NCBI GenBank assembly: GCA_965261445.1
Contig: CBDHCW010000011.1
Coordinates: 967 to 64,966, forward strand
Origin: Dehalococcoidia bacterium
Lineage (GTDB): Bacteria; Chloroflexota; Dehalococcoidia; Lucifugimonadales; QGNO01
DNA length: 64,000 bases
Direction of reading: 5' to 3'
Shown here: positions 13,615 to 64,000 of the stretch, piece by piece
Position numbering within the stretch: position 1 is the stretch's first letter
Layout: each line of letters opens with the position of its first letter
Position numbers and translations under genes: made by a program
The notes under the pieces: generated by a model
The model's input: only the letters and a program-made list of their open reading frames with translations
Told to the model about the DNA's origin: nothing
The model's database searches: none

Positions 13615-13850
13615 TACTCTGCTTTGAACGGGAGTAGTAGGAGAGGCTCGGTCACAGAGAGCCGGCGGCAGCTGAAAAGCCGGTGACAAAGAGGTCCCGA
13701 ACTCGCCCGGGAGCAGTTGGCTTGGGCCGTAGAGCTGGAGCCAACGGAGTTGCACCGTTATAGCAATAGAGAGCCCTGATGTGATGTTGGGGAAGAAGGG
13801 TGGTACCGCGGGAACCGTTTCCCGTCCCTTAGTGGGACGGGATTTTTTGT
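13615..13850 (+). promoter_or_regulatory. T-box riboswitch with Leu (CUC) specifier
   Basis: Stem I with AGAGA bulge and GCUGAAA loop; GAA-CUC specifier at 13702-13704; T-box AAGGGTGGTACCGCG at 13796-13810. Confidence 0.93.
13821..13848 (+). terminator. T-box attenuator terminator
   Basis: CCCGTCCC/GGGACGGG stem followed by a T-run. Confidence 0.88.
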
Positions 13851-28816: not shown

Positions 28817-29752
28817 TCAGGACAGCGGTGAGGCTAAAATAAGAGAGTCTACCGCTGGGGTGTCTCGTAAACCTTCATCCGATGGTAAGGCTCGTGGATG
28901 TTCCAGTAAACACCTTTGTGGGCTCACTGCTTGGAACACCTGACCCGGTGACCGATAGCCCAGGGCTTGATGGGGCCGCTCTTGGTTGTAGAAGGCCAGA
29001 TAAGCCCCAATCCCCTTTCTGGCCTCAGTCCCATTTTGGTATGCCTTCAGGTACACCTCCTCGTACTTGATGCTGCGCCACAGCCGTTCCACGAAGACGT
29101 TGTCCATACACCGGCCCCTGCCGTCCATGCTCACTTGAACGCCTTGCGCCAGCAGCATGCTGGTGAAGGCCTCGCTGGTGAACTGGCTGCCCTGGTCGGT
29201 GTTGAAGATCTGTGGCCGACCCTTGCTCAGGGCCTCTTCCAGAGCCGCAACACAGAAGTCTACCTCCAGGGTGTTGGACAGCCGCCAAGCCAGCACGTAG
29301 CGGCTGTGCCAGTCCATGATGGCCACCAAGTAGAGGAAACCCCGAGCCATGGGTATGTAGGTGATGTCGGTGGCCCACACCTGGTTGACCCGGTTGATCT
29401 CCAGCCCCCTGAGCAAGTACGGATAGACCTTATGCCCTGGGTTTGGCTTGCTGGTGTTGGGACGCCGGTAGATGGCCTCCAGGCCTATCAGCTGCATCAG
29501 CCGGCGGACCCGCTTGCGGTTGACCTGGTGTCCGTGATTTCTGAGCCAGGCAGTCATCCTTCTGGAGCCGTAGAAAGGTGTCTTCAGGTACTGTTGATCT
29601 ATGCGGGCCATCAACTCCAAGTCCTCGGCGCCGGCCTCGGTTGGCAGGTAGTACAACGAGGAGCGGCTGATACCCAGCAAGGCGCACTGGCGCACCAGAG
29701 ACAGCTTCGGTTCTTCTCGGTCAATCATGGCCCGGCGTTGGGACCGGCTCAC
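28817..29752 (-). CDS. IS3 transposase OrfB (DDE)
   Basis: [31 protein letters not shown]. Confidence 0.95.
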
Positions 29753-37120: not shown

Positions 37121-37166
37121 CCCACCCCTCTCCACTCACCCTTGCATGGATTCCACCTCATTTTGT

Positions 37167-37830
37167 ATTGCGAGGAACCGAACCAATCCAGCGGGGGTGG
37201 GCATACGGTCTCAGGGCAGGTACAAGTTACGTATCATCAAACGTGTTGGTCCACTAGGATTGGATTGCCGTCAGGGTCGGTTAGCACAAAGCTCGCCGGT
37301 CCTGTGCTGCGTTCGTCTGCTTCAACTTGTAGCTGTAGGCCTTCCGCTTTGAACTGCCGCTGCATGTCGCGCACGTCTGTATAGGTTTCGAGGTTTTGGC
37401 CCTGGCTATCCCACCCTGGATTGAAAGTCAGTATGTTCTTTTCGAACATCCCCTGGAAGATACCTATCGTGCAACTCCCGTTCCTTAGTATCTGCCAGTT
37501 TTCTGAAGGCTCACCTGCTACGACTTCGAATCCCAGCTTCTCGTAGAAGGTTCTCGAAGCCTTGAGGTCTTGGACAGCCAAACTAACCGAAAAGGCGCCA
37601 AGATCCATGTTGCTCCTCCCAATTTGCAAATTTGGTCTCTCATGGCCTACGAGTTACCCGAGTGACTGGCTTTATGTGCTGCTAAGGTCAAATCTGGGCC
37701 TAAACAAAGCCCCGTGTCCTTCTACGGTCGAGTTTACCATGTCTAAGAATCTGATTTTCTGTCATTGTGAGGAACCGAAAGCAATCCAGCGGTGGGCGGC
37801 TGTCACTTACAGGCTCCCCGCAATGACGGG
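37167..37830. repeat. Degenerate GTCATT-type repeats flanking the VOC gene
   Basis: ATTG(C/T)GAGGAACCGAA..CAATCCAGCGG at 37167-37194 and 37764-37792; inverted arm CGCAATGACG near 37819-37828. Confidence 0.65.
37237..37608 (-). CDS. VOC/glyoxalase family protein
   Basis: SLAVQDLKASRTFYEKLGF, DPDGNPI. Confidence 0.88.
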   Translation of the reverse strand: MDLGAFSVSLAVQDLKASRTFYEKLGFEVVAGEPSENWQILRNGSCTIGIFQGMFEKNILTFNPGWDSQGQNLETYTDVRDMQRQFKAEGLQLQVEADERSTGPASFVLTDPDGNPILVDQHV

Positions 37831-37974
37831 GTGGATTGCGGTTTCGTATAAAAGTGTGCATACAGCTAGCACCGGAAGCCAGGGGCGTGCTCATCCGCAA
37901 ACCTTTACTGCTTCAGCCATGCTGTGGTATATTCCTCACCTATCAATTCGAAAGAAAAAGAGAGGTGACTGAGG

Positions 37975-58653: not shown

Positions 58654-58762
58654 GTCATTCTGAGCGCAGCGAAGAATCCTATGTTTGCCTCCTGCTCAGA
58701 CGTTTCCTTTGATTGCCGCCAGCGCCCCGCCGCCTGGATTCCCGCTTGGGGCGGGAATGACG
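58654..58762. repeat. GTCATT-type palindromic repeats (two variant arms)
   Basis: GTCATTCTGAGCGCAGCGAAGAATC and inverted GGATTCCCGCTTGGGGCGGGAATGACG. Confidence 0.75.
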
Positions 58763-58842
58763 ACAGGGACTTATGAGACCGGCTCAAATATGCCAAACAG
58801 GCCACTAACTATCACCCTGCGGCTTGCTATAATCGTTGCATT

Positions 58843-61035
58843 GTGCAGACTACCGATATTCTGGAAGGATTGAACCCGGCGCAGAGAGAGTCCACAGAGG
58901 CTATAGAGGGCCCCGTGCTCATAGTGGCAGGCCCGGGCAGCGGCAAGACCCGCGTTATCACACATCGCATCGCTTACCTGGTGCGCGTTTGCGGCGTCGG
59001 CCCGCACCGCATTGCCGCGGTGACCTTCACCAACAAAGCGGCGCGGGAGATGCGGGGTCGGCTGGAGCGCCTGCTGGGCAGCCGCGCCGAGGGGTTGACC
59101 TGCAGCACGTTCCATTCTCTGTGCGTCTCAATACTGAGGCGCGACGGCCATCACATGGGGCTGGACCGTAGCTTTGTCATCTACGATGACGATGACACCA
59201 TGGCTTTGCTGAAACGGGCCATGGAAGAGGGTCAAATAGACCCCAAGCGGTACCCATTGCGCGCCGTGAGCAACATCATTTCAGGAGCAAAGAGCAAACT
59301 GATAGACCCGGAGGCCTTTGCCGGTGTCGTGTCGAGCTACTACGACGAGATTGTGCTCAGGATATACGAACGGTACGAAGCGCTGCTCTGGCAAAGCAGG
59401 GCCCTGGACTTCGATGACCTGCTGTCAAAGACTGTGAAGCTGCTGCAGGACACGCCCCAGGTGCTTGAGAAGTACCAGTCGCGCTACCTTCATCTGCTCA
59501 TAGACGAGTTCCAGGATACCAACACGGCCCAGTACGCCCTGGCCAAGCTGCTTGCCGGTAAGTACCGCAACATCTGCGTGGTGGGCGATCCTGATCAGTC
59601 GGTATACTCCTGGCGCAACGCTGACATCAGGAACATCCTGTCGTTTCAGAGAGACTACCCGGAAGCCAAGGTGGTCACCCTGGCAGAGAACTACCGCTCC
59701 ACAAAGAACATTGTGGAGGCGGCGAAGGGTGTAATTGCCTCCAACCAGAGCAGGCTGGAAAACGACCTGTTCACCAGCAAGGAGCAGGGCCGCCCCCTAG
59801 TGGTGCGCGAGGGTCACAACGAGGACGAGGAAGCTCGCATGGTGGTGCAGGAGGTCGACAGGCTGGTCAGGGAGGAAGGTCTGTCCCTGGGAGACTGTGC
59901 CGTAATGTACCGTATAAATGCACAGTCCAGAGCAATGGAAGAGGCCTGCCTCCGCTATGGAATGACCTACCGCCTGATAGGCGGCGTCAGGTTCTATCAA
60001 AGGCGCGAGGTCAAAGACGTGGTTGCTTATCTGAGGGTTGTGCTGAACCCGTACGACGAGGTGAGCCTGAACCGCATCATCAACGTGCCGTCCAGGGGCA
60101 TAGGCTCCAGAACAATGGAGGAGGTGACCCGATGGGCACAAGACCTGGGCCTGCCCCTGTACGCGGCTCTCCAGGCGATTGCCGCCGGGGAGGTAGGCGA
60201 AGTGAAGCCTCGGATTGCGCCGAGGGCCGTCGCCGCTATCGAGCGGTTCGTCAGCCTCACCGGCTATCTTGTCGAGCAAGCCGAGAAGGTGGGAGTCGCG
60301 GGGCTGATAGACCTGTTGCTGGAAAGAATAGGCTACAGGAGCTACCTTCAGGAGGACGAACGAGGTGAGGAGCAGTGGGAGAACGTACTTGAGTTGAAAG
60401 GACAGGCCGCCGAGGTGGATGAGCTGCTGGCCGGAGAGGAAGATGGCTCACTCGCCTTTTTCCTGGAGAGGATATCCCTTGTTTCCGACGTGGACAGCCT
60501 GGACGAAAGCAAGGACGCTCTGACCCTGATCACTCTGCACCAGGCCAAGGGGCTGGAGTTCCCCGTTGTGTTCATCATTGGGTTGGAAGAGCGGTTGCTG
60601 CCACACTCCCGCTCCATGGACGACCCGGCCCAGATGGAAGAGGAGCGCCGTCTGTTTTACGTGGGGATAACCAGGGCGGAAGAGCGACTCTACCTGTTCC
60701 GTGCTTTCCGACGTCGGCTAATGGGCTTAAGCATGGCCGGTACACCGTCCCGCTTCCTTGCCGACATTCCCAGAGAGCTCATAGAGCAGCCGGTGGCCGT
60801 TTCCCCGCCGTGGGAATGGAAAAGGCGGCGCAGCCAGAGCGAGGTAACGGCGGAGGCAGGCCCTCCGTTGAGGACGGGCGACAAGGTGCATCACAAGGCC
60901 TTTGGCGATGGAATTGTGGTCAACTGCATAGCATCAGGGAATGACCATGAGGCCACGGTGGCGTTCAAAGGATCAGCGGGCGTGAAACGTTTGCTGCTAA
61001 GTATTGCTCCGTTGGAGAAGGTGGCGGCGAAGTAG
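58843..61035 (+). CDS. pcrA: PcrA/UvrD helicase
   Basis: AGPGSGKT, DEFQDTN, GDPDQS, EERRLFYVGITRA. Confidence 0.95.
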   Translation: MQTTDILEGLNPAQRESTEAIEGPVLIVAGPGSGKTRVITHRIAYLVRVCGVGPHRIAAVTFTNKAAREMRGRLERLLGSRAEGLTCSTFHSLCVSILRRDGHHMGLDRSFVIYDDDDTMALLKRAMEEGQIDPKRYPLRAVSNIISGAKSKLIDPEAFAGVVSSYYDEIVLRIYERYEALLWQSRALDFDDLLSKTVKLLQDTPQVLEKYQSRYLHLLIDEFQDTNTAQYALAKLLAGKYRNICVVGDPDQSVYSWRNADIRNILSFQRDYPEAKVVTLAENYRSTKNIVEAAKGVIASNQSRLENDLFTSKEQGRPLVVREGHNEDEEARMVVQEVDRLVREEGLSLGDCAVMYRINAQSRAMEEACLRYGMTYRLIGGVRFYQRREVKDVVAYLRVVLNPYDEVSLNRIINVPSRGIGSRTMEEVTRWAQDLGLPLYAALQAIAAGEVGEVKPRIAPRAVAAIERFVSLTGYLVEQAEKVGVAGLIDLLLERIGYRSYLQEDERGEEQWENVLELKGQAAEVDELLAGEEDGSLAFFLERISLVSDVDSLDESKDALTLITLHQAKGLEFPVVFIIGLEERLLPHSRSMDDPAQMEEERRLFYVGITRAEERLYLFRAFRRRLMGLSMAGTPSRFLADIPRELIEQPVAVSPPWEWKRRRSQSEVTAEAGPPLRTGDKVHHKAFGDGIVVNCIASGNDHEATVAFKGSAGVKRLLLSIAPLEKVAAK

Positions 61036-61067
61036 AGGCCCCTCCTCCGTCAGCTCCCGCCGCCCCT

Positions 61068-61093
61068 GGATACCCGCCGGCGCGGGCATGACG
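61068..61093 (-). repeat. CGTCAT-type palindromic arm
   Basis: Minus strand CGTCATGCCCGCGCCGGCGGGTATCC. Confidence 0.6.
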
Positions 61094-61257
61094 GACAGGA
61101 GGGACTGGTGAAGTGCCTTTCATCGTGCTGGCGCAGACCCTCTTGCCCCGTCCGCCTTTCTGAAACAGGCTCAAAAGCGTCATTGTTCCGTTTGACTTCC
61201 ATGGCAAGGCATCCGCTACAATGACCCCAATCTTCAACCGTCTTTTTTGGGTTCACA

Positions 61258-62523
61258 ATGCATCAAAAAACAGTTCTGGACAACGGCATCCGCCTGCTGA
61301 CCGCGTCCATGCCGCATACCCGCTCGGTATCGATGTGCATATACGTAGGCAGCGGCTCACGCTACGAGGACAACGAGCATGCGGGGATTTCGCACTTCCT
61401 GGAGCACATGCTGTTCAAGGGCACGCCTCGCAGGCAGTCCGCCGCCGAGATCACCGGAGCCATAGAGCAGGTGGGCGGCATGATGAACGGCAGCACGGAT
61501 CGTGAGATCACGGCCTACTGGTGCAAGGTGGCAACGCCCCACTTCGAACGGGCACTGGACGTCCTTGTCGACATGGTTCGCAACCCCTTGATGGAAGATG
61601 AAGAGGTGGGGAAGGAGCGCAGCGTCATCCAGGAAGAGCTGGCTATGTCGAACGATTATCCCGGCTATCGAGTGGAGATGCTCACCGACCAGATGCTCTG
61701 GCCGGACCATCCCATGGGGCGTGACGTCGGTGGCAGCAAGGAAACGGTCGATGGCATAACGCGGGAGATGATGACCGACTGGTTTCAGCACCAGTACGGG
61801 GCCAGCAACGTGGTGATCAGCATAGCGGGGAGCCTGTCCCATGAAGAGATGCTGAACGCCGTGGAGCCCATGGTCAAGGACTGGCCTCCTGGATCACCGT
61901 TTGGCTGGGAGCCGGCCGGCAACGGAAGCAGGCAGGAGCCACAAGCGCGCATGGAATACCGCAAGACGGAGCAGGCGCACTTGGCGCTCTCCCTTCCCGG
62001 CATCTCCACCCGCCATCCGCAGAGATATCCCATGGATATGATGAACGCGGTCATGGGAGAGGGGATGAGCAGCCGCCTCTTCCTAGAGGTACGGGAGAAA
62101 CGTGGACTGGCCTACGATATCCATAGCTCGGCTAGCCATTTTCGCGATACAGGTTCCATAACCATATATTTCGGCGTGGACCCCAAGAAAGCGCGCTACG
62201 CCATTGAGACGACGATTGAGGAGCTGCACCGTCTCAAGGAAGACATTTCGGAGGAAGACCTGCACCGGGCACGTGAGCTGGCCAAGGGCCGTTTGCTGCT
62301 GCGCATGGAGGACACCCGCGCCGTCGCCGCCTGGGCGGGCGCCCAAGAGCTCCTCCACAACGAGGTGCTCACCGTGGACCAGGTGGTGGAACGCGTGGAC
62401 GAGGTAACTACGGAAGACGTGAAGCGGGCGGCCAACCAGTTCCTGGCCAGAGACAAGCTGATCCTGGCGGTGGTAGGTCCGTACCGCAGCGACAAACAGT
62501 TCCAAAACGCAATCAAGATGTAA
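61258..62523 (+). CDS. M16 family zinc peptidase
   Basis: HFLEH motif, SRLF.EVREKRGLAY. Confidence 0.93.
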   Translation: MHQKTVLDNGIRLLTASMPHTRSVSMCIYVGSGSRYEDNEHAGISHFLEHMLFKGTPRRQSAAEITGAIEQVGGMMNGSTDREITAYWCKVATPHFERALDVLVDMVRNPLMEDEEVGKERSVIQEELAMSNDYPGYRVEMLTDQMLWPDHPMGRDVGGSKETVDGITREMMTDWFQHQYGASNVVISIAGSLSHEEMLNAVEPMVKDWPPGSPFGWEPAGNGSRQEPQARMEYRKTEQAHLALSLPGISTRHPQRYPMDMMNAVMGEGMSSRLFLEVREKRGLAYDIHSSASHFRDTGSITIYFGVDPKKARYAIETTIEELHRLKEDISEEDLHRARELAKGRLLLRMEDTRAVAAWAGAQELLHNEVLTVDQVVERVDEVTTEDVKRAANQFLARDKLILAVVGPYRSDKQFQNAIKM

Positions 62524-62558
62524 CGGCTCACCCCGTCATTTGCCAGCGCCGTCCTCCT

Positions 62559-62673
62559 CGTCATTGCGAGTAAGCGAAGCAATCCGGTGGGGTGCAATCC
62601 TCATTCCTACCCTCACACATTGGCCAGCCCCGCCACCAGGTTGCCACGCCACGATTCTATCGTGGCTCGCAAC
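62559..62673. repeat. CGTCATTGCGAG-type repeat pair (inverted arms)
   Basis: Arms at 62559-62584 and 62633-62673; the second nearly matches 63721-63761. Confidence 0.85.
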
Positions 62674-62679
62674 GGGGCA

Positions 62680-63144
62680 TCACCGCCCCTGTTCTCGCTG
62701 GGTCAGGGCGTAGGCTATCTTCTCCCGTGACGACATGCCGCTGAACTCCTGGTTCCCTCTTACCGGCGCACCGGAAGGGACGCGCTCCCCGACAATCTGA
62801 GCCTCGATTCGCCCGCGTACCTTCTCCACCATCTGCCGCGCACCGGCCAGGGAGGTTTCGACCTCTTCCGGCGATTCTCCCCCGACCAGCTCCTCCGGGA
62901 CATCGGGGGCGGCAGCGAGCAACGCTTCTCGGTAACGGGCGGTGGCCGAGGCAAGCCGGCTCTGCAGAGCCTCGATCTCTAGGTCGCGCTGTTCCAGGGC
63001 CGTGCGCAGCTCGGCAAGCTCTGCCTGCGCTTCGTCCGATGCCGTCTCCGCTGCTGGGGCTTCACCATCCTGGCCGGCAGACTCTACCATCGTCTCTTCA
63101 GAGGTTACTTCCTCCATGATCGCCTCCTCTTCTGCGTTATGCAC
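62680..63144 (-). CDS. Putative capsid scaffold-like protein
   Basis: Acidic N-terminus, coiled coil, VPSGAP.R...MSSREKIAYAL tail; lies downstream of a portal-like gene. Confidence 0.55.
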   Translation of the reverse strand: MHNAEEEAIMEEVTSEETMVESAGQDGEAPAAETASDEAQAELAELRTALEQRDLEIEALQSRLASATARYREALLAAAPDVPEELVGGESPEEVETSLAGARQMVEKVRGRIEAQIVGERVPSGAPVRGNQEFSGMSSREKIAYALTQREQGR

Positions 63145-63240
63145 TCAGGGTAAGCCGCAGCCGGCGGCTTGGGGAAGGGGGAGATGGCAGAGTGTCATTG
63201 GAGAGCAGGCGATGATAATCCCACATGGCGGTCATGGCGA

Positions 63241-63289
63241 GCGTCCATCGCAGTGCGGCGGCTATGGATCCCTGAGCCGACTAGCAACT
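63241..63289 (-). repeat. 49-bp diverged copy of the portal-like gene segment 63893-63941
   Basis: 45/49 identical; all four differences are at third codon positions. Confidence 0.9.
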
Positions 63290-63301
63290 TGGGCTTCACC
63301 A

Positions 63302-63391
63302 CCACCAGATTGCCACGCCCCGATTATCGGGGCTCGCAATGACGAGAAGCGGTTCCGGTGTCGTCATTGCGAGCGCCCAAGCGAAGCAATC
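63302..63391. repeat. Composite palindromic unit downstream of GIY-YIG
   Basis: GATTGCCACG...CTCGCAATGACG plus CGTCATTGCGAG...GCGAAGCAATC. Confidence 0.88.
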
Positions 63392-63412
63392 TGGTGGGGT
63401 GGGGCTGGCAGT

Positions 63413-63700
63413 CTACAGCTCGGTGCTCAGGTCTCGCCAAGCCGGATTCATTTTGTTGACCAACTCAATCTTTCGCCGGCGTGAGTATGCTTTAATTTGC
63501 TTCTCGTGGGCAATGGCGGCCTCCGCTGTTGCCGCTATTTCGTAATAAACAAGGTCGGTAACGTTGTACTTTGCGGCAAAACCGGACGTGAACTTCTCCT
63601 TGTGCTCGTAGACGCGGCGTGAAAGATTATTAGTCATCCCTGTATAGAGCACTGTTTTCCTGGGGTTGGTCATTATGTATATAAAGAAGGTCTTGTCCAT
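63413..63700 (-). CDS. Small stand-alone GIY-YIG nuclease (95 aa)
   Basis: FIYIMTN...LYTGMTNNLSRRVYEH...LVYYE...AIAHEKQIK...NPAWRDL. Confidence 0.9.
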   Translation of the reverse strand: MDKTFFIYIMTNPRKTVLYTGMTNNLSRRVYEHKEKFTSGFAAKYNVTDLVYYEIAATAEAAIAHEKQIKAYSRRRKIELVNKMNPAWRDLSTEL

Positions 63701-63720
63701 GCTAATCCATGTTGGCCCCG

Positions 63721-63813
63721 CCACCAGGTTGCCACGCCACGATTCTATCGTGACTCGCAACGACGAGGAGCGGGTTCCGTCACCGTCATTGCGAGCGTCA
63801 AAGCGAAGCAATC
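63721..63813. repeat. Composite palindromic unit upstream of GIY-YIG
   Basis: Direct repeat of 63302-63391. Confidence 0.88.
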
Positions 63814-63837
63814 CCCCCGGGGGGGGGGGGGCAATTC

Positions 63838-64000
63838 TCACCCCTCCTCTCGCACCTTGGCTAGCTCCGCCTCCGGGTCCGGCACGCCGAGGGCTTCCAT
63901 TGCGGTGCGGCGGCTGTGGATCCCTGAGCCGACTAGCAACTGCTCGTCGCGGACAAGGCGGCCCCTGTTCTGGGGCAGCACGGGTCCCCAGATTATCTCC
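63838..64000 (-). CDS. 3' end of a probable phage portal-like protein (partial; absent from the ORF track)
   Basis: Manual translation EIIWGPVLPQNRGRLVRDEQLLVGSGIHSRRTAMEALGVPDPEAELAKVREEG* resembles SPP1-type portal C-termini. Confidence 0.6.
   Translation of the reverse strand, partial: EIIWGPVLPQNRGRLVRDEQLLVGSGIHSRRTAMEALGVPDPEAELAKVREEG

Follow-up and report, generated by a model that had tools for sequence, protein, structure and literature searches.

A probable Ssn-family GIY-YIG nuclease and its oriented hairpin repeats in an uncultured Dehalococcoidia bacterium

The nuclease gene and the repeats around it

We analysed a 64,000-nt stretch of DNA (the window) from a Dehalococcoidia bacterium, in which a first-pass annotation, made from the letters and their open reading frames, had described a stand-alone GIY-YIG gene for a 95-aa protein. 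The gene was confirmed (Table 1): a Pfam search matched PF01541 (GIY-YIG) at residues 5-77 of the protein with E 1.3e-13 and found no second domain, so that the protein has the single GIY-YIG domain and the length below 150 aa by which Ssn proteins are recognised. Its GIY-YIG core is retained, as Y8, Y19, G21, R29, H33, E66 and N85, which we take to have catalytic roles in GIY-YIG enzymes, were invariant or nearly so in two alignments of 26 and 18 homologs. Position 65, adjoining the conserved E66, is H here and R in 24/26 aligned homologs, and activity of the 95-aa protein is therefore not assured.

Orthologs were 99% identical in congener G004 and 92% in G003. The best matches (57-62% identity) came from Dehalococcoidales, Elusimicrobiota, Cyanobacteria and Kuenenia, with the nearest named ssn homolog in a Dehalococcoidales MAG. 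An indirect link to the published type comes from a homolog at locus L100 (50% identity across residues 3-94, E 5e-30): the hairpins on its flanks fit the published SRM pattern and carry the exact Neisseria NTS core GTCATTCCCGCGAAAGCGGGAATC. The genome also holds a second, frameshifted ssn paralog on contig C13, which is 49% identical to the 95-aa protein and flanked by its own repeat type, GTCATTCTGA..AGAATC. NCBIfam gave sub-threshold matches only, to a DEDD exonuclease model and to TIGR01453 (group I intron endonuclease; 18.1 bits, cut-off 56), PADLOC gave none, and PHROGs gave one weak family of unknown function. The best hit of a PDB sequence search was weak (UPF0213 protein BH0048, 1ZG2, E 0.007), and the same search brought up no Ssn structure.

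Two direct units of about 110 bp, at 63296-63404 and 63715-63826 and spaced 419-422 bp, enclose the gene. The direct and inverted design described at first pass thus stood, while the length given there, about 90 bp, was too short. Each unit is an inverted pair of GTC(A/G)TTGCGAG...GCAA(T/C)C hairpins, consisting of a long hairpin repeat (head on minus), a 19-20-nt spacer and a short hairpin repeat (head on plus). The inner hairpin upstream has its head on the gene's strand, 26 nt 5′ of the ssn start codon, and the inner hairpin downstream has its head on the opposite strand, 21 nt 3′ of the stop codon. The arrangement is therefore hairpin, ssn, hairpin with heads outward, and each inner hairpin has an inverted partner here. 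Oriented repeats lie on both sides of the gene and elsewhere in the genome, as in the Ssn/SRM system of ssDNA nucleases, the name under which this gene-plus-repeat pairing is described in the consulted parts of Chenal et al. (Nat Commun 2025, PMC11893778).

The whole cassette lies in the spacer between an SPP1-type portal gene and a coiled-coil ORF; the portal assignment (PF05133, E 3.4e-13) was measured on the ortholog in G005. D3′, a stretch of 49 nt copied from part of the portal gene, brackets the cassette together with its source, and was confined to the three cassette-carrying genomes.

Table 1. Features of the window discussed in the text (DNA fold in kcal/mol, followed by z)
Feature	Position	Strand	Remarks	Fold; z
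ssn gene	63413-63700	minus	95-aa ORF, single-domain GIY-YIG nuclease	
REP1-type long repeat, GTCGTTGCGAG-inner hairpin-GGCAACC	63715-63764 (hairpin 63727-63764)	minus	upstream inner	-11.0; -1.95
REP2-type short repeat, GTCATTGCGAG..GCGAAGCAATC and G-rich tail	63785-63826 (hairpin 63785-63813)	plus	outer partner of the upstream pair	-7.9; -0.32 (no better than shuffles)
REP2-type short repeat	63363-63404 (hairpin 63363-63391)	plus	downstream inner	-5.7; +0.47
REP1-type long repeat	63296-63345 (hairpin 63308-63343)	minus	outer partner of the downstream pair	-11.6; -3.04
D3′, 49-nt copy of portal gene piece	63241-63289	plus	92% identical to source, 63893-63941	
SPP1-type phage portal gene, 3′ end	63838-64000	minus	PF05133; right-hand neighbour of the cassette	
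Tails-facing gene-less pair	62560-62674	plus; minus	REP2 type, plus, 62560-62584; REP1 type, minus, 62627-62674, head degenerate	
Canonical CGTC-REP/NTS-like hairpin (GTCATGCCCGCGCCGGCGGGTATC)	61070-61092	minus	directly after uvrD/pcrA-like gene	
Two tails-facing hairpins	58654-58761	plus; minus	TCTGAG type, plus, 58654-58678; canonical TCCCGCC type, minus, 58737-58761	
Two degenerate short-type copies, direct orientation	~37160-37199; ~37763-37800	plus	around 130-aa glyoxalase-family ORF	

Related arms without the gene had been placed at 62559-62673, 61068-61093, 58654-58762 and 37167-37830. All were present, and so was the reported co-variation of the stems (TGCG/GCA, TCTG/AGA and TCCCG/CGGGA) between a fixed GTCAT head and ATC tail. 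The first pair sits between an M16 peptidase gene and a 154-aa ORF, in a spacer whose repeat content was different in every congener compared. G001, G004, G005 and G007 retain the single canonical hairpin at this position; its loop carries an insertion in G004, it is tandemly duplicated in G005, and in G003 2.7 kb stood in its place. The two hairpins of the third site lie between a GNAT gene and a helicase gene. Around the glyoxalase-family ORF, the region of the left copy (37121-37225) was missing from G005, G007 and G001. A 68-nt indel between G000 and G004 beside a repeat (37789-37856) was rejected, as it was not a clean unit.

Repeat structure and distribution in the genome

We found 29 copies of GTCATTGCGAG on both strands of the 1.89-Mb genome, where ~0.9 would be expected for an 11-mer, and GTCRTTGCGAG occurred 33 times, its backward reading once. 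The SRM search pattern published by Chenal et al. (PMC11893778), HGTCWYN(0-2)YYVSBRHN(0-5)WNVSBRGN(0-2)RNCYNB, is a search tool that they derived from 29 genomes and does not define the family. It had no match on this contig and 29 matches in the whole genome against 17.6 ± 3.6 in shuffles; at homologous loci it matched 0/29 within the order and 2/80 in the multi-phylum set described below. Because the pattern failed on the repeats of this genome, we employed a generic detector of head and 5-bp closing stem (GTC, a 5-nt word, a gap, the reverse complement of the word, and C) with shuffle controls. It returned 152 sites, whereas 20 dinucleotide shuffles gave 68.4 ± 7.4; eight family words account for 80 of the 152.

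The census gave four repeat subfamilies with roughly 100 copies in total, and two ssn paralogs. The hairpin variant at this locus is two-part: between the outer stem of 5 bp (ATTGC/GCAAT) and an inner hairpin whose length varies lies a GAG/(C)GAA internal loop. As the DNA fold of the short TGCGAG and TCTGAG hairpins was no better than that of shuffles (z +0.47, -0.32, -0.40 and +1.0), the word hairpin refers for these repeats to the conserved two-part pattern and not to stability. In 26 aligned copies, conservation extends from 11 nt before the hairpin (-11) to 16 nt after it (+16), and this unit equals in size the gene-less indels described below.

The repeats lie mostly outside long reading frames, near gene ends. 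The earlier claim that the arms are intergenic holds as a depletion: stop-to-stop frames of at least 200 codons contained 36% of the 80 family sites versus 82% of random positions. Both these frames and the greedy longest-ORF gene set are crude at 58% GC, and we therefore state the placement only in this form; 29/77 hairpins fell 'inside' greedy ORFs, which probably run through repeats. Neighbouring family matches under the strict detector were direct in 15 cases, heads-facing in 3 and tails-facing in 2, and the inverted-dimer predominance reported for CGTC REPs was not reproduced genome-wide with this detector. Repeat orientation followed the replichores, with a bias to the leading-strand template, the strand not exposed at the fork, and was independent of which way the flanking ORFs run (24 vs 22; 19 vs 17). 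An Rfam gathering scan of the whole window identified only a T-box leader and nothing at the repeats. PF01797 (Y1/RAYT transposase) had 0 matches in the 87%-complete genome, which rules against a RAYT as the mobilising enzyme.

Association of nuclease and hairpins, and its interpretation

Within the order, a hairpin lay no more than 150 nt from the ssn homolog at 27/29 loci (upstream on the gene's strand at 24, downstream on the other strand at 18, both at 15), and hairpin density was 7.5 per kb within this distance versus 0.24 per kb further out (31-fold). Similarly, 72 of 80 multi-phylum loci, retrieved with a 7-sequence alignment (A2) and spanning Dehalococcoidia, Cyanobacteria, Kuenenia, Ignavibacteria, CPR, Firmicutes, Bacteroidota and Proteobacteria, had a hairpin within 200 nt of the gene, 44 of the 80 on both sides in the heads-outward arrangement, with densities of 6.2 per kb near the gene and 0.16 further out (38-fold). 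The association proposed at first pass was thus borne out, and repeat type followed the protein clades: the clade of the 95-aa protein (support 97/96) carried (A/G)TTGC stems in 5/5 rows, and other protein clades went with ATTCT, ATTCC-GAG or perfect-stem repeat types. These results support that the nuclease and the hairpins belong together.

Filled and empty sites, another comparison suggested at first pass, were both found among the congeners, for the cassette as well as for the ~52-nt gene-less units. The cassette site is filled in G000, G003 and G004, holds one long hairpin in G001 and carries other cargo in G005 and G007; the gene-less unit at 63778-63837, and with it the outer REP2 of the upstream pair, is missing at the orthologous site in G001. 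Cassette presence did not track flank similarity, since G005 (93-96% flank identity) lacks it and G003 (86%) has it. The five genomes with this nuclease clade carried 33, 42, 40, 52 and 38 copies of GTCRTTGCGAG, the top five of 41 relatives; congeners without the clade had 12-25 copies and 25 other genomes at most 9. Repeats persist without ssn in G001, G005 and others (12-25 copies), and no ssn was found in G030 (82% completeness) despite 25 copies. Nor was a canonical-clade ssn cognate to the 57 canonical-type copies found in the 87%-complete assembly studied here.

Taken together, we consider it very probable that the 95-aa protein belongs to the Ssn family and that the hairpins are its Ssn-related motifs, identical in kind to CGTC-tagged REPs. 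The locus is a further example of the published Ssn/SRM system and not a new system. On the model of the four enzymes tested by Chenal et al., the protein would bind the hairpin, oriented by its GTCAT head and ATC tail on either side of the stem, only as single-stranded DNA and would cut the hairpin-bearing strand a few nucleotides 5′ of the head. Each ssn paralog is flanked by its own repeat subfamily, and specificity therefore appears to have diverged with the repeats. In the cell, the candidate roles are restriction of incoming ssDNA, as in Neisseria, and selfish maintenance and spread of the repeats.

Two readings would detach the gene from its hairpins. The repeats might be RNA-level or terminator elements, or protein-binding REPs, into whose spacers the gene happened to land; their position mostly outside long frames and near gene ends would suit this, as would the suggestion, in the consulted part of Di Nocera et al. 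2013 (PMC3733652), that many CGTC REPs are transcribed. However, the 31-fold and 38-fold enrichment beside the gene is measured over the loci's own wider flanks, repeat type tracks protein clade, orientation is unrelated to the flanking ORFs and no Rfam family was matched, all of which makes such independence extremely unlikely. Alternatively, ssn may be a free-standing GIY-YIG homing endonuclease (Seg/Mob-like) of a phage-derived cluster that cut a target nearby and was thereby copied into the spacer separating the portal gene from the scaffold-like gene, with the hairpins as bystanders. The portal gene and coiled-coil ORF as neighbours, the spacer cargo that varies per congener, the 49-nt portal segment copied in filled genomes only and the weak TIGR01453 match (18 bits) are consistent with homing. 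Yet this score is far under the 56-bit cut-off, the protein has 95 aa and no DNA-binding domain, hairpins flank 27/29 and 72/80 homologous loci in unrelated contexts, and the C13 paralog and most homologs lie outside phage-like contexts within the flanks seen, so that we regard a homing endonuclease as very unlikely.

A third reading would add to the Ssn explanation without displacing it. Together with the gene-less units of ~52 nt, the cassette could be an active, self-propagating mobile system, in which Ssn would mobilise CGTC REPs in the functional role that RAYT has for REPINs, and would be more than an ssDNA restriction enzyme serving its host. The heads-outward hairpins around ssn resemble terminal inverted repeats, and both the cassette (G000, G003 and G004 against G001, G005 and G007) and the gene-less units (63778-63837; 37121-37225) are polymorphic. 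The equal size of conserved unit and indels, the peak in copy number with the cognate nuclease clade, the independence of cassette presence from flank similarity (G005 versus G003), the scattered taxonomy of the best matches at 57-62% identity and the lack of a Y1/RAYT match in the 87%-complete genome point the same way. On the other hand, GIY-YIG nucleases to our knowledge only hydrolyse, and we know of no strand-transfer chemistry for them, so spread would need host repair or recombination. Moreover, the indels could be deletions, microhomology blurs their boundaries, which show no evident target-site duplication, genomes lacking ssn still keep repeats, and the orientation bias is opposite to that of IS200/IS605-type ssDNA transposition; the compared genomes are also close kin sharing sites, which leaves few events. 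We consider mobility possible but doubtful, and only tentatively suggest that the Ssn/hairpin pair of this genus, instead of being a domesticated relic, is still live and propagates itself by means of ssDNA. If it does, Ssn would be the long-missing enzyme that spreads CGTC REPs, and its route would differ from the one used by IS200/IS605. As the repeats are oriented, the strand that Ssn would cut lies on the leading-strand template; in this reading the orientation would reflect either a chromosome shaped against self-cutting at forks or insertion via the nascent lagging strand.

Comparison with known systems

UPF0213/YhbQ-type proteins (BH0048, PDB 1ZG2) are likewise small and stand-alone but presumably form a separate CDD family, and we know of no report of hairpins flanking them. 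Free-standing GIY-YIG homing endonucleases add a DNA-binding domain and reach ~200 aa or more, whereas the protein here has 95 aa and one domain. In RAYT/REP (REPIN) and IS200/IS605 systems, as at our locus, each repeat family goes with one gene, which its hairpins flank; recognition of an ssDNA hairpin with an unpaired tag (putative here) and gene-less copies both single and paired are further shared features. Their enzyme, however, is an HUH/Y1 transposase and not a GIY-YIG hydrolase, and the RAYT/REP tag is GTAG where the tag here is GTC(A/G)T. IS200/IS605 elements prefer the lagging-strand template, whereas the repeats here are biased to the leading-strand template.

The CGTC-tagged REPs of Di Nocera, De Gregorio and Rocco (BMC Genomics 2013, PMC3733652), which include Neisseria dRS3 and Rickettsia RPE-4/6, are characterised in the consulted sections by an unpaired (C/T)GTC head, a stem starting AT and a short unpaired tail, all of which were found in the repeats here. 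Both sets are extragenic and dispersed with several families per genome, and the CCA tail recurs on the canonical subfamilies here (35/78 matches). The rule of an 8-9-bp stem and a 4-5-nt loop given there fits the GTCATGCCCG and GTCATTCCCG subfamilies, but not the TGCGAG and TCTGAG types beside the two ssn genes, whose outer stem of 5 bp is followed by an internal loop. The host phylum lies outside the five listed for CGTC repeats in those sections. No dedicated enzyme was found in that study, whereas here, as in Chenal et al. 2025, an enzyme gene lies among the repeats.

The comparison with RAYT/REP made at first pass is apt and had already been drawn by Chenal et al., who, in the consulted parts of their article (PMC11893778), likened Ssn to IS200/IS605 and REP. 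They also showed that four Ssn members bind the flanking hairpin as ssDNA and cut a few nucleotides upstream, so that the earlier statement that no mechanism is established does not hold. The idea of a different enzyme for REP-like hairpins was right in outline and not new, having been published as Ssn/SRM. The observation of the first-pass annotation is thus confirmed and its interpretation partly supported; the locus is a rediscovery, and its value is confirmatory. In the same article, as far as consulted, TTGCGAG is absent from 10 xlsx supplements and 'Chloroflex' from the main text, and Supplementary Data 4 lists Chloroflexus aggregans and Anaerolinea thermophila with an ssn homolog and without SRM enrichment (30 against 33; 24 against 22). 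Our literature search found no Ssn work later than Chenal et al. 2025 and no paper joining GIY-YIG with repetitive extragenic palindromic.

These results extend the Ssn/SRM pairing to an uncultured lineage and indicate that repeats in a large branch spanning several phyla, the one with the TGCGAG and TCTGAG two-part hairpins, are under-detected by the published SRM pattern. For developers of Ssn-based ssDNA tools, this branch offers a predicted distinct recognition architecture and natural paralog pairs with different predicted targets in one genome, and the filled and empty sites, together with the replichore-linked orientation, bear on whether the nuclease spreads these repeats. The closest counterpart is Ssn/SsnA of Neisseria meningitidis with its NTS repeats, which likewise combines a small single-domain GIY-YIG protein of ~95 aa with a gene flanked on both sides by oriented hairpins ((C/T)GTCAT head, ATC tail); in both cases the flanking hairpins are also dispersed in the genome and homologs are paired with different hairpin variants. 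The locus described here differs from the published ones in its host, an uncultured bacterium, and in its hairpin, which is two-part and missed by the published SRM pattern, whereas the NTS hairpin is a perfect 8-9-bp stem.

Organization of the ssn locus

We found that ssn, the gene for a 95-aa GIY-YIG nuclease, is enclosed by two direct repeat units of inverted arms, 419-422 bp apart, which confirmed the arrangement proposed in the first-pass annotation; the dispersed related copies named there were also all present (see table). Each unit consists of a long hairpin repeat headed on the minus strand (GTC(A/G)TTGCGAG, then an inner hairpin and GGCAA(T/C)C), a 19-20-nt spacer, and a short hairpin repeat headed on the plus strand (GTCATTGCGAG..GCGAAGCAATC, then a G-rich tail). 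Read in the direction of ssn, a same-strand hairpin stops 26 nt short of the start codon and an opposite-strand hairpin starts 21 nt past the stop codon, and both of these inner hairpins are paired with an inverted partner farther out. Past the right-hand short hairpin, a C run is followed by a G run where the near-identical congener G004 reads CCGGGGGGGTGCAATTC, which is possibly an assembly artefact.

Coordinates of the ssn cassette, related hairpins and other features (window positions unless a genome or contig is named; G000, source genome; G003, congener; C, contig)
Feature	Position	Strand	Remarks
ssn ORF, 95 aa	63413-63700	minus	PF01541 GIY-YIG at residues 5-77, E 1.3e-13; no other Pfam match
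ssn codon 65	63507-63509		His
Left repeat unit	63296-63404		direct repeat of right unit
Right repeat unit	63715-63826		direct repeat of left unit
C run then G run	63814-63831		past right-hand short hairpin
49-nt direct repeat, left copy	63241-63289		just outside left repeat unit
49-nt direct repeat, right copy	63893-63941		within portal gene, 55 nt before stop
Further hairpin copies	62560-62674; 61070-61092; 58654-58761
Two degenerate copies	~37160 and ~37763		on either side of a glyoxalase-family ORF
Gene-less short unit	63778-63837		missing from congener G001
Another gene-less short unit	37121-37225		missing from congeners G005, G007 and G001
Portal/coiled-coil cluster	62680-64000		SPP1-type portal gene (PF05133), 145-154-aa coiled-coil ORF, beside housekeeping genes
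T-box leader	13615-13832	plus	RF00230, 113 bits; sole Rfam match within the window
Second ssn paralog	G000 C13 ~29266-29520	minus	49% identical; flanked by GTCATTCTGA..AGAATC hairpins (TCTGA type)
Loop-insert canonical hairpins	G000 C4:692-737; C10:49779-49825; C32:128975-129020		also in G004 and G005 orthologs of window 61036-61257
Two tandem TGCGAG-head arrays (8 and 5 heads)	G003 C1:1401027-1401413 and 2072087-2072513		all heads on one strand

The protein consists of a single domain, and its conserved core (Y8, Y19, G21, R29, H33, E66 and N85) was invariant across alignments of homologs. Residue 65, beside the conserved Glu66, is Arg in 24 of 26 homologs, as it is in the 99% identical G004 ortholog. 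A 142-aa extended frame at the ssn locus runs into the downstream hairpin, as do the frames of several ssn homologs (loci L012, L017, L021, L022 and L031), with tails such as ...DSSLRSE; repeat-encoded tails are likely to be met in automatic protein predictions.

A dispersed hairpin family and its orientation

The same hairpins are dispersed throughout the source genome (1.89 Mb in 33 contigs, 58% GC, 87% complete). The word GTCATTGCGAG occurred 29 times, compared with about 0.9 expected for an 11-mer by simple arithmetic, and GTCRTTGCGAG occurred 33 times, compared with once for the backwards control. Among the commonest 10-mers after GTC(A/G)T were GTCATGCCCG (35 copies), GTCATTGCGA (32), GTCATTCCCG (22) and GTCATTCTGA (17), which mark four repeat subfamilies of about 100 copies together. 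A generic hairpin detector identified 152 sites, compared with 68.4 +/- 7.4 in 20 dinucleotide shuffles. The 80 sites with family words were depleted from stop-to-stop frames of at least 200 codons (36%, compared with 82% of random positions), while the remaining 72 were placed like random positions.

In these repeats the (C/T)GTC head is unpaired, the stem begins with AT and the tail is CCA-like. Those flanking both ssn genes of this genome are two-part types, in which an outer stem of 5 bp (ATTGC/GCAAT or ATTCT/AGAAT) leads through an internal loop (GAG / (C)GAA) to an inner hairpin that varies from almost none up to 8 bp. Long two-part forms folded well as DNA (z -2 to -4.5), whereas short ones folded no better than shuffles. 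A further 57 hairpins have canonical perfect stems (GTCATGCCCG, 35; GTCATTCCCG, 22). In a variant of the canonical hairpin, GTCATGCCCGCGCAG-CTTGCCCC..GGGG-CGGGTATCC, the loop contains a second hairpin; the uvrD/M16 spacer carries the plain form in G000, the loop-insert form in G004 and both in tandem in G005.

We then scored the orientation of the heads in three complete congeners, using two head patterns in G004 and one each in G003 and G001, with the replication origin assumed at dnaA. About 70% of heads lay on the lagging-strand sequence: the GTCAT strand was on this sequence, the leading-strand template, for 71 of 98 hits (41 of 58 clusters) in G004, 31 of 42 hits (17 of 22 clusters) in G003 and 15 of 25 hits (12 of 20 clusters) in G001. 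The bias in G004 was maximal with the assumed origin at 1.1-1.2 Mb, the location of dnaA. In the source genome, 17 of 62 hairpins were co-oriented with the locally G-rich strand and 73% lay on the locally C-rich strand. Which way the flanking ORFs pointed was unrelated to repeat orientation (24 vs 22; 19 vs 17). That repeat orientation follows the replichores is a lead and not a result, because the three complete genomes are congeners sharing sites and the origin was assumed; leading and lagging strands go unmentioned in the main text of PMC11893778 or PMC3733652.

Nuclease clades and hairpin types among relatives

The first-pass annotation had put forward cross-genome co-occurrence and co-phylogeny of nuclease and repeats as a check. 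Co-occurrence was borne out. In the lineage set of 41 genomes (the source genome and 40 relatives), 23 had a homolog at E <= 0.001, and 29 loci were analysed, comprising 27 with E < 1e-12 and the two of the source genome, with 12 weaker rows left out. A generic hairpin lay within 150 nt of the gene in 27 of the 29; 24 had one upstream on the same strand, 18 had one downstream on the other strand, and 15 had both. Hairpin density dropped from 7.5 per kb close to the gene to 0.24 per kb at distances above 500 nt, both values being slightly inflated by nested matches. A wider scan, with one genome per species, identified at least 582 relatives among 589 candidate stretches. The best 80 of these came from many phyla: 72 had a hairpin within 200 nt, 44 were two-sided with heads outward, density dropped from 6.2 per kb close to the gene to 0.16 per kb farther out, and the commonest stem word was ATTGC (TGCGAG), found in 91 of 197 hairpins.

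Hairpin type also followed the protein tree. All 5 rows of the clade that holds the 95-aa protein (support 97/96) have (A/G)TTGC stems; among the other clades, one has ATTCC-GAG, a deep one has perfect, Neisseria-like stems, and the rest have ATTCT. Moreover, GTCRTTGCGAG copies in the five genomes with this clade (33, 42, 40, 52 and 38) were the five highest of the 41; these carriers span three family codes, with three in one genus. Same-genus genomes lacking the clade had 12-25 copies, and the other 25 genomes had at most 9, which is inside or close to the 0-7 given by the control. No ssn was found in G030, an 82% complete genome with 25 copies. The correspondence between repeat type and protein clade fits co-divergence without proving it, because kin share labels.

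A one-base frameshift near codon 78 sets the second paralog of the source genome apart from its orthologs and removes the conserved C-terminal N-P-x-W-x-D-L stretch; either the gene may be a pseudogene or the shift an assembly error. A canonical-clade ssn gene was not found in this 87%-complete assembly, and is present in G004 and G005 (L025, L026), flanked by the canonical hairpin type.

Site polymorphism, proposed function and relation to the Ssn system

Comparison of filled and empty sites showed that the cassette and the gene-less units are polymorphic. Between genes 83-96% identical in the source genome and its congeners, the cassette occupies the identical place in G004 and G003, while the spacer holds only one long hairpin in G001, other genes spanning 2.8 kb in G005 (a 239-aa ORF with trypsin-like and AIG2-like genes) and a 241-aa ORF in G007. 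The conserved short unit measures about 52 nt (n = 26; hairpin plus surroundings, -11 to +16), a size matching the gene-less indels. No target duplication was evident at the compared sites, and they can be read as insertions or deletions alike. The surrounding portal/coiled-coil cluster is in the same place in 6 of 6 congeners compared, and its spacer, with cargo differing by congener, has the look of a hot spot for cargo within a conserved cluster of phage origin. Two direct copies of a 49-nt sequence (92% identical) bracket the whole cassette; the left one follows GTCATGGCGAGCG, a sequence similar to a repeat head, and is confined to the three cassette-carrying genomes. This is no ordinary target-site duplication.

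Both the variable site and this portal-gene duplicate would be accounted for if ssn encoded a free-standing homing endonuclease belonging to the phage-derived portal/scaffold cluster, but this explanation leaves the small size of the protein and the recurrent hairpin flanks unaccounted for. Similarly, were the repeats RNA or terminator elements unrelated to the nuclease, neither their 31- to 38-fold enrichment beside the gene nor the co-variation would be explained. The architecture, the family relationship and the pairing of nuclease clade with hairpin type can be read from the sequences themselves. What the enzyme does with these hairpins is suggested by other Ssn members, since each of four purified enzymes bound its hairpin solely in single-stranded form and cleaved a few nucleotides upstream (PMC11893778). 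By analogy, the oriented hairpin would be bound as ssDNA and cut 5' of its head, and the 95-aa protein would bind and cut TGCGAG-type hairpins likewise. Such cutting may serve the host, through restriction of incoming ssDNA as proposed for Neisseria, or the spread of the repeat.

The repeats share their head, stem start and tail with the CGTC-tagged REPs, a class that includes Neisseria dRS3 and in which no dedicated transposase came to light in the study of Di Nocera et al. 2013 (PMC3733652). The RAYT/REP-like pairing of a GIY-YIG enzyme with hairpins, as first proposed for this locus, was largely right in outline and already in print, because Chenal et al. 2025 reported that small GIY-YIG proteins with a single domain, belonging to CDD family cd10448, are flanked by such hairpins (NTS, CGTCATTCCCGCGMAVGCGGGAATCYRG, in Neisseria; SRM as the general term), with at least one SRM near 71% of homologs and SRMs on both sides of 42%; they likened the NTS-ssnA-NTS arrangement to an insertion sequence and to the RAYT/REP case (PMC11893778). 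The flanking hairpins of a 50% identical homolog (L100) carry the exact NTS core, which gives an indirect link between this protein and the published Ssn type. The published degenerate SRM pattern had 0 matches on the window's contig and 29 in the source genome (17.6 +/- 3.6 in shuffles), and it matched 0 of the 29 lineage loci and 2 of the best 80. This mismatch probably reflects a limit of the pattern, a search tool derived from 29 genomes, and need not exclude the locus from the family. Altogether, judged by its sequence, the locus is a rediscovery of the Ssn/SRM system that adds a probable further family member, whose hairpin variant is missed by the published SRM pattern.
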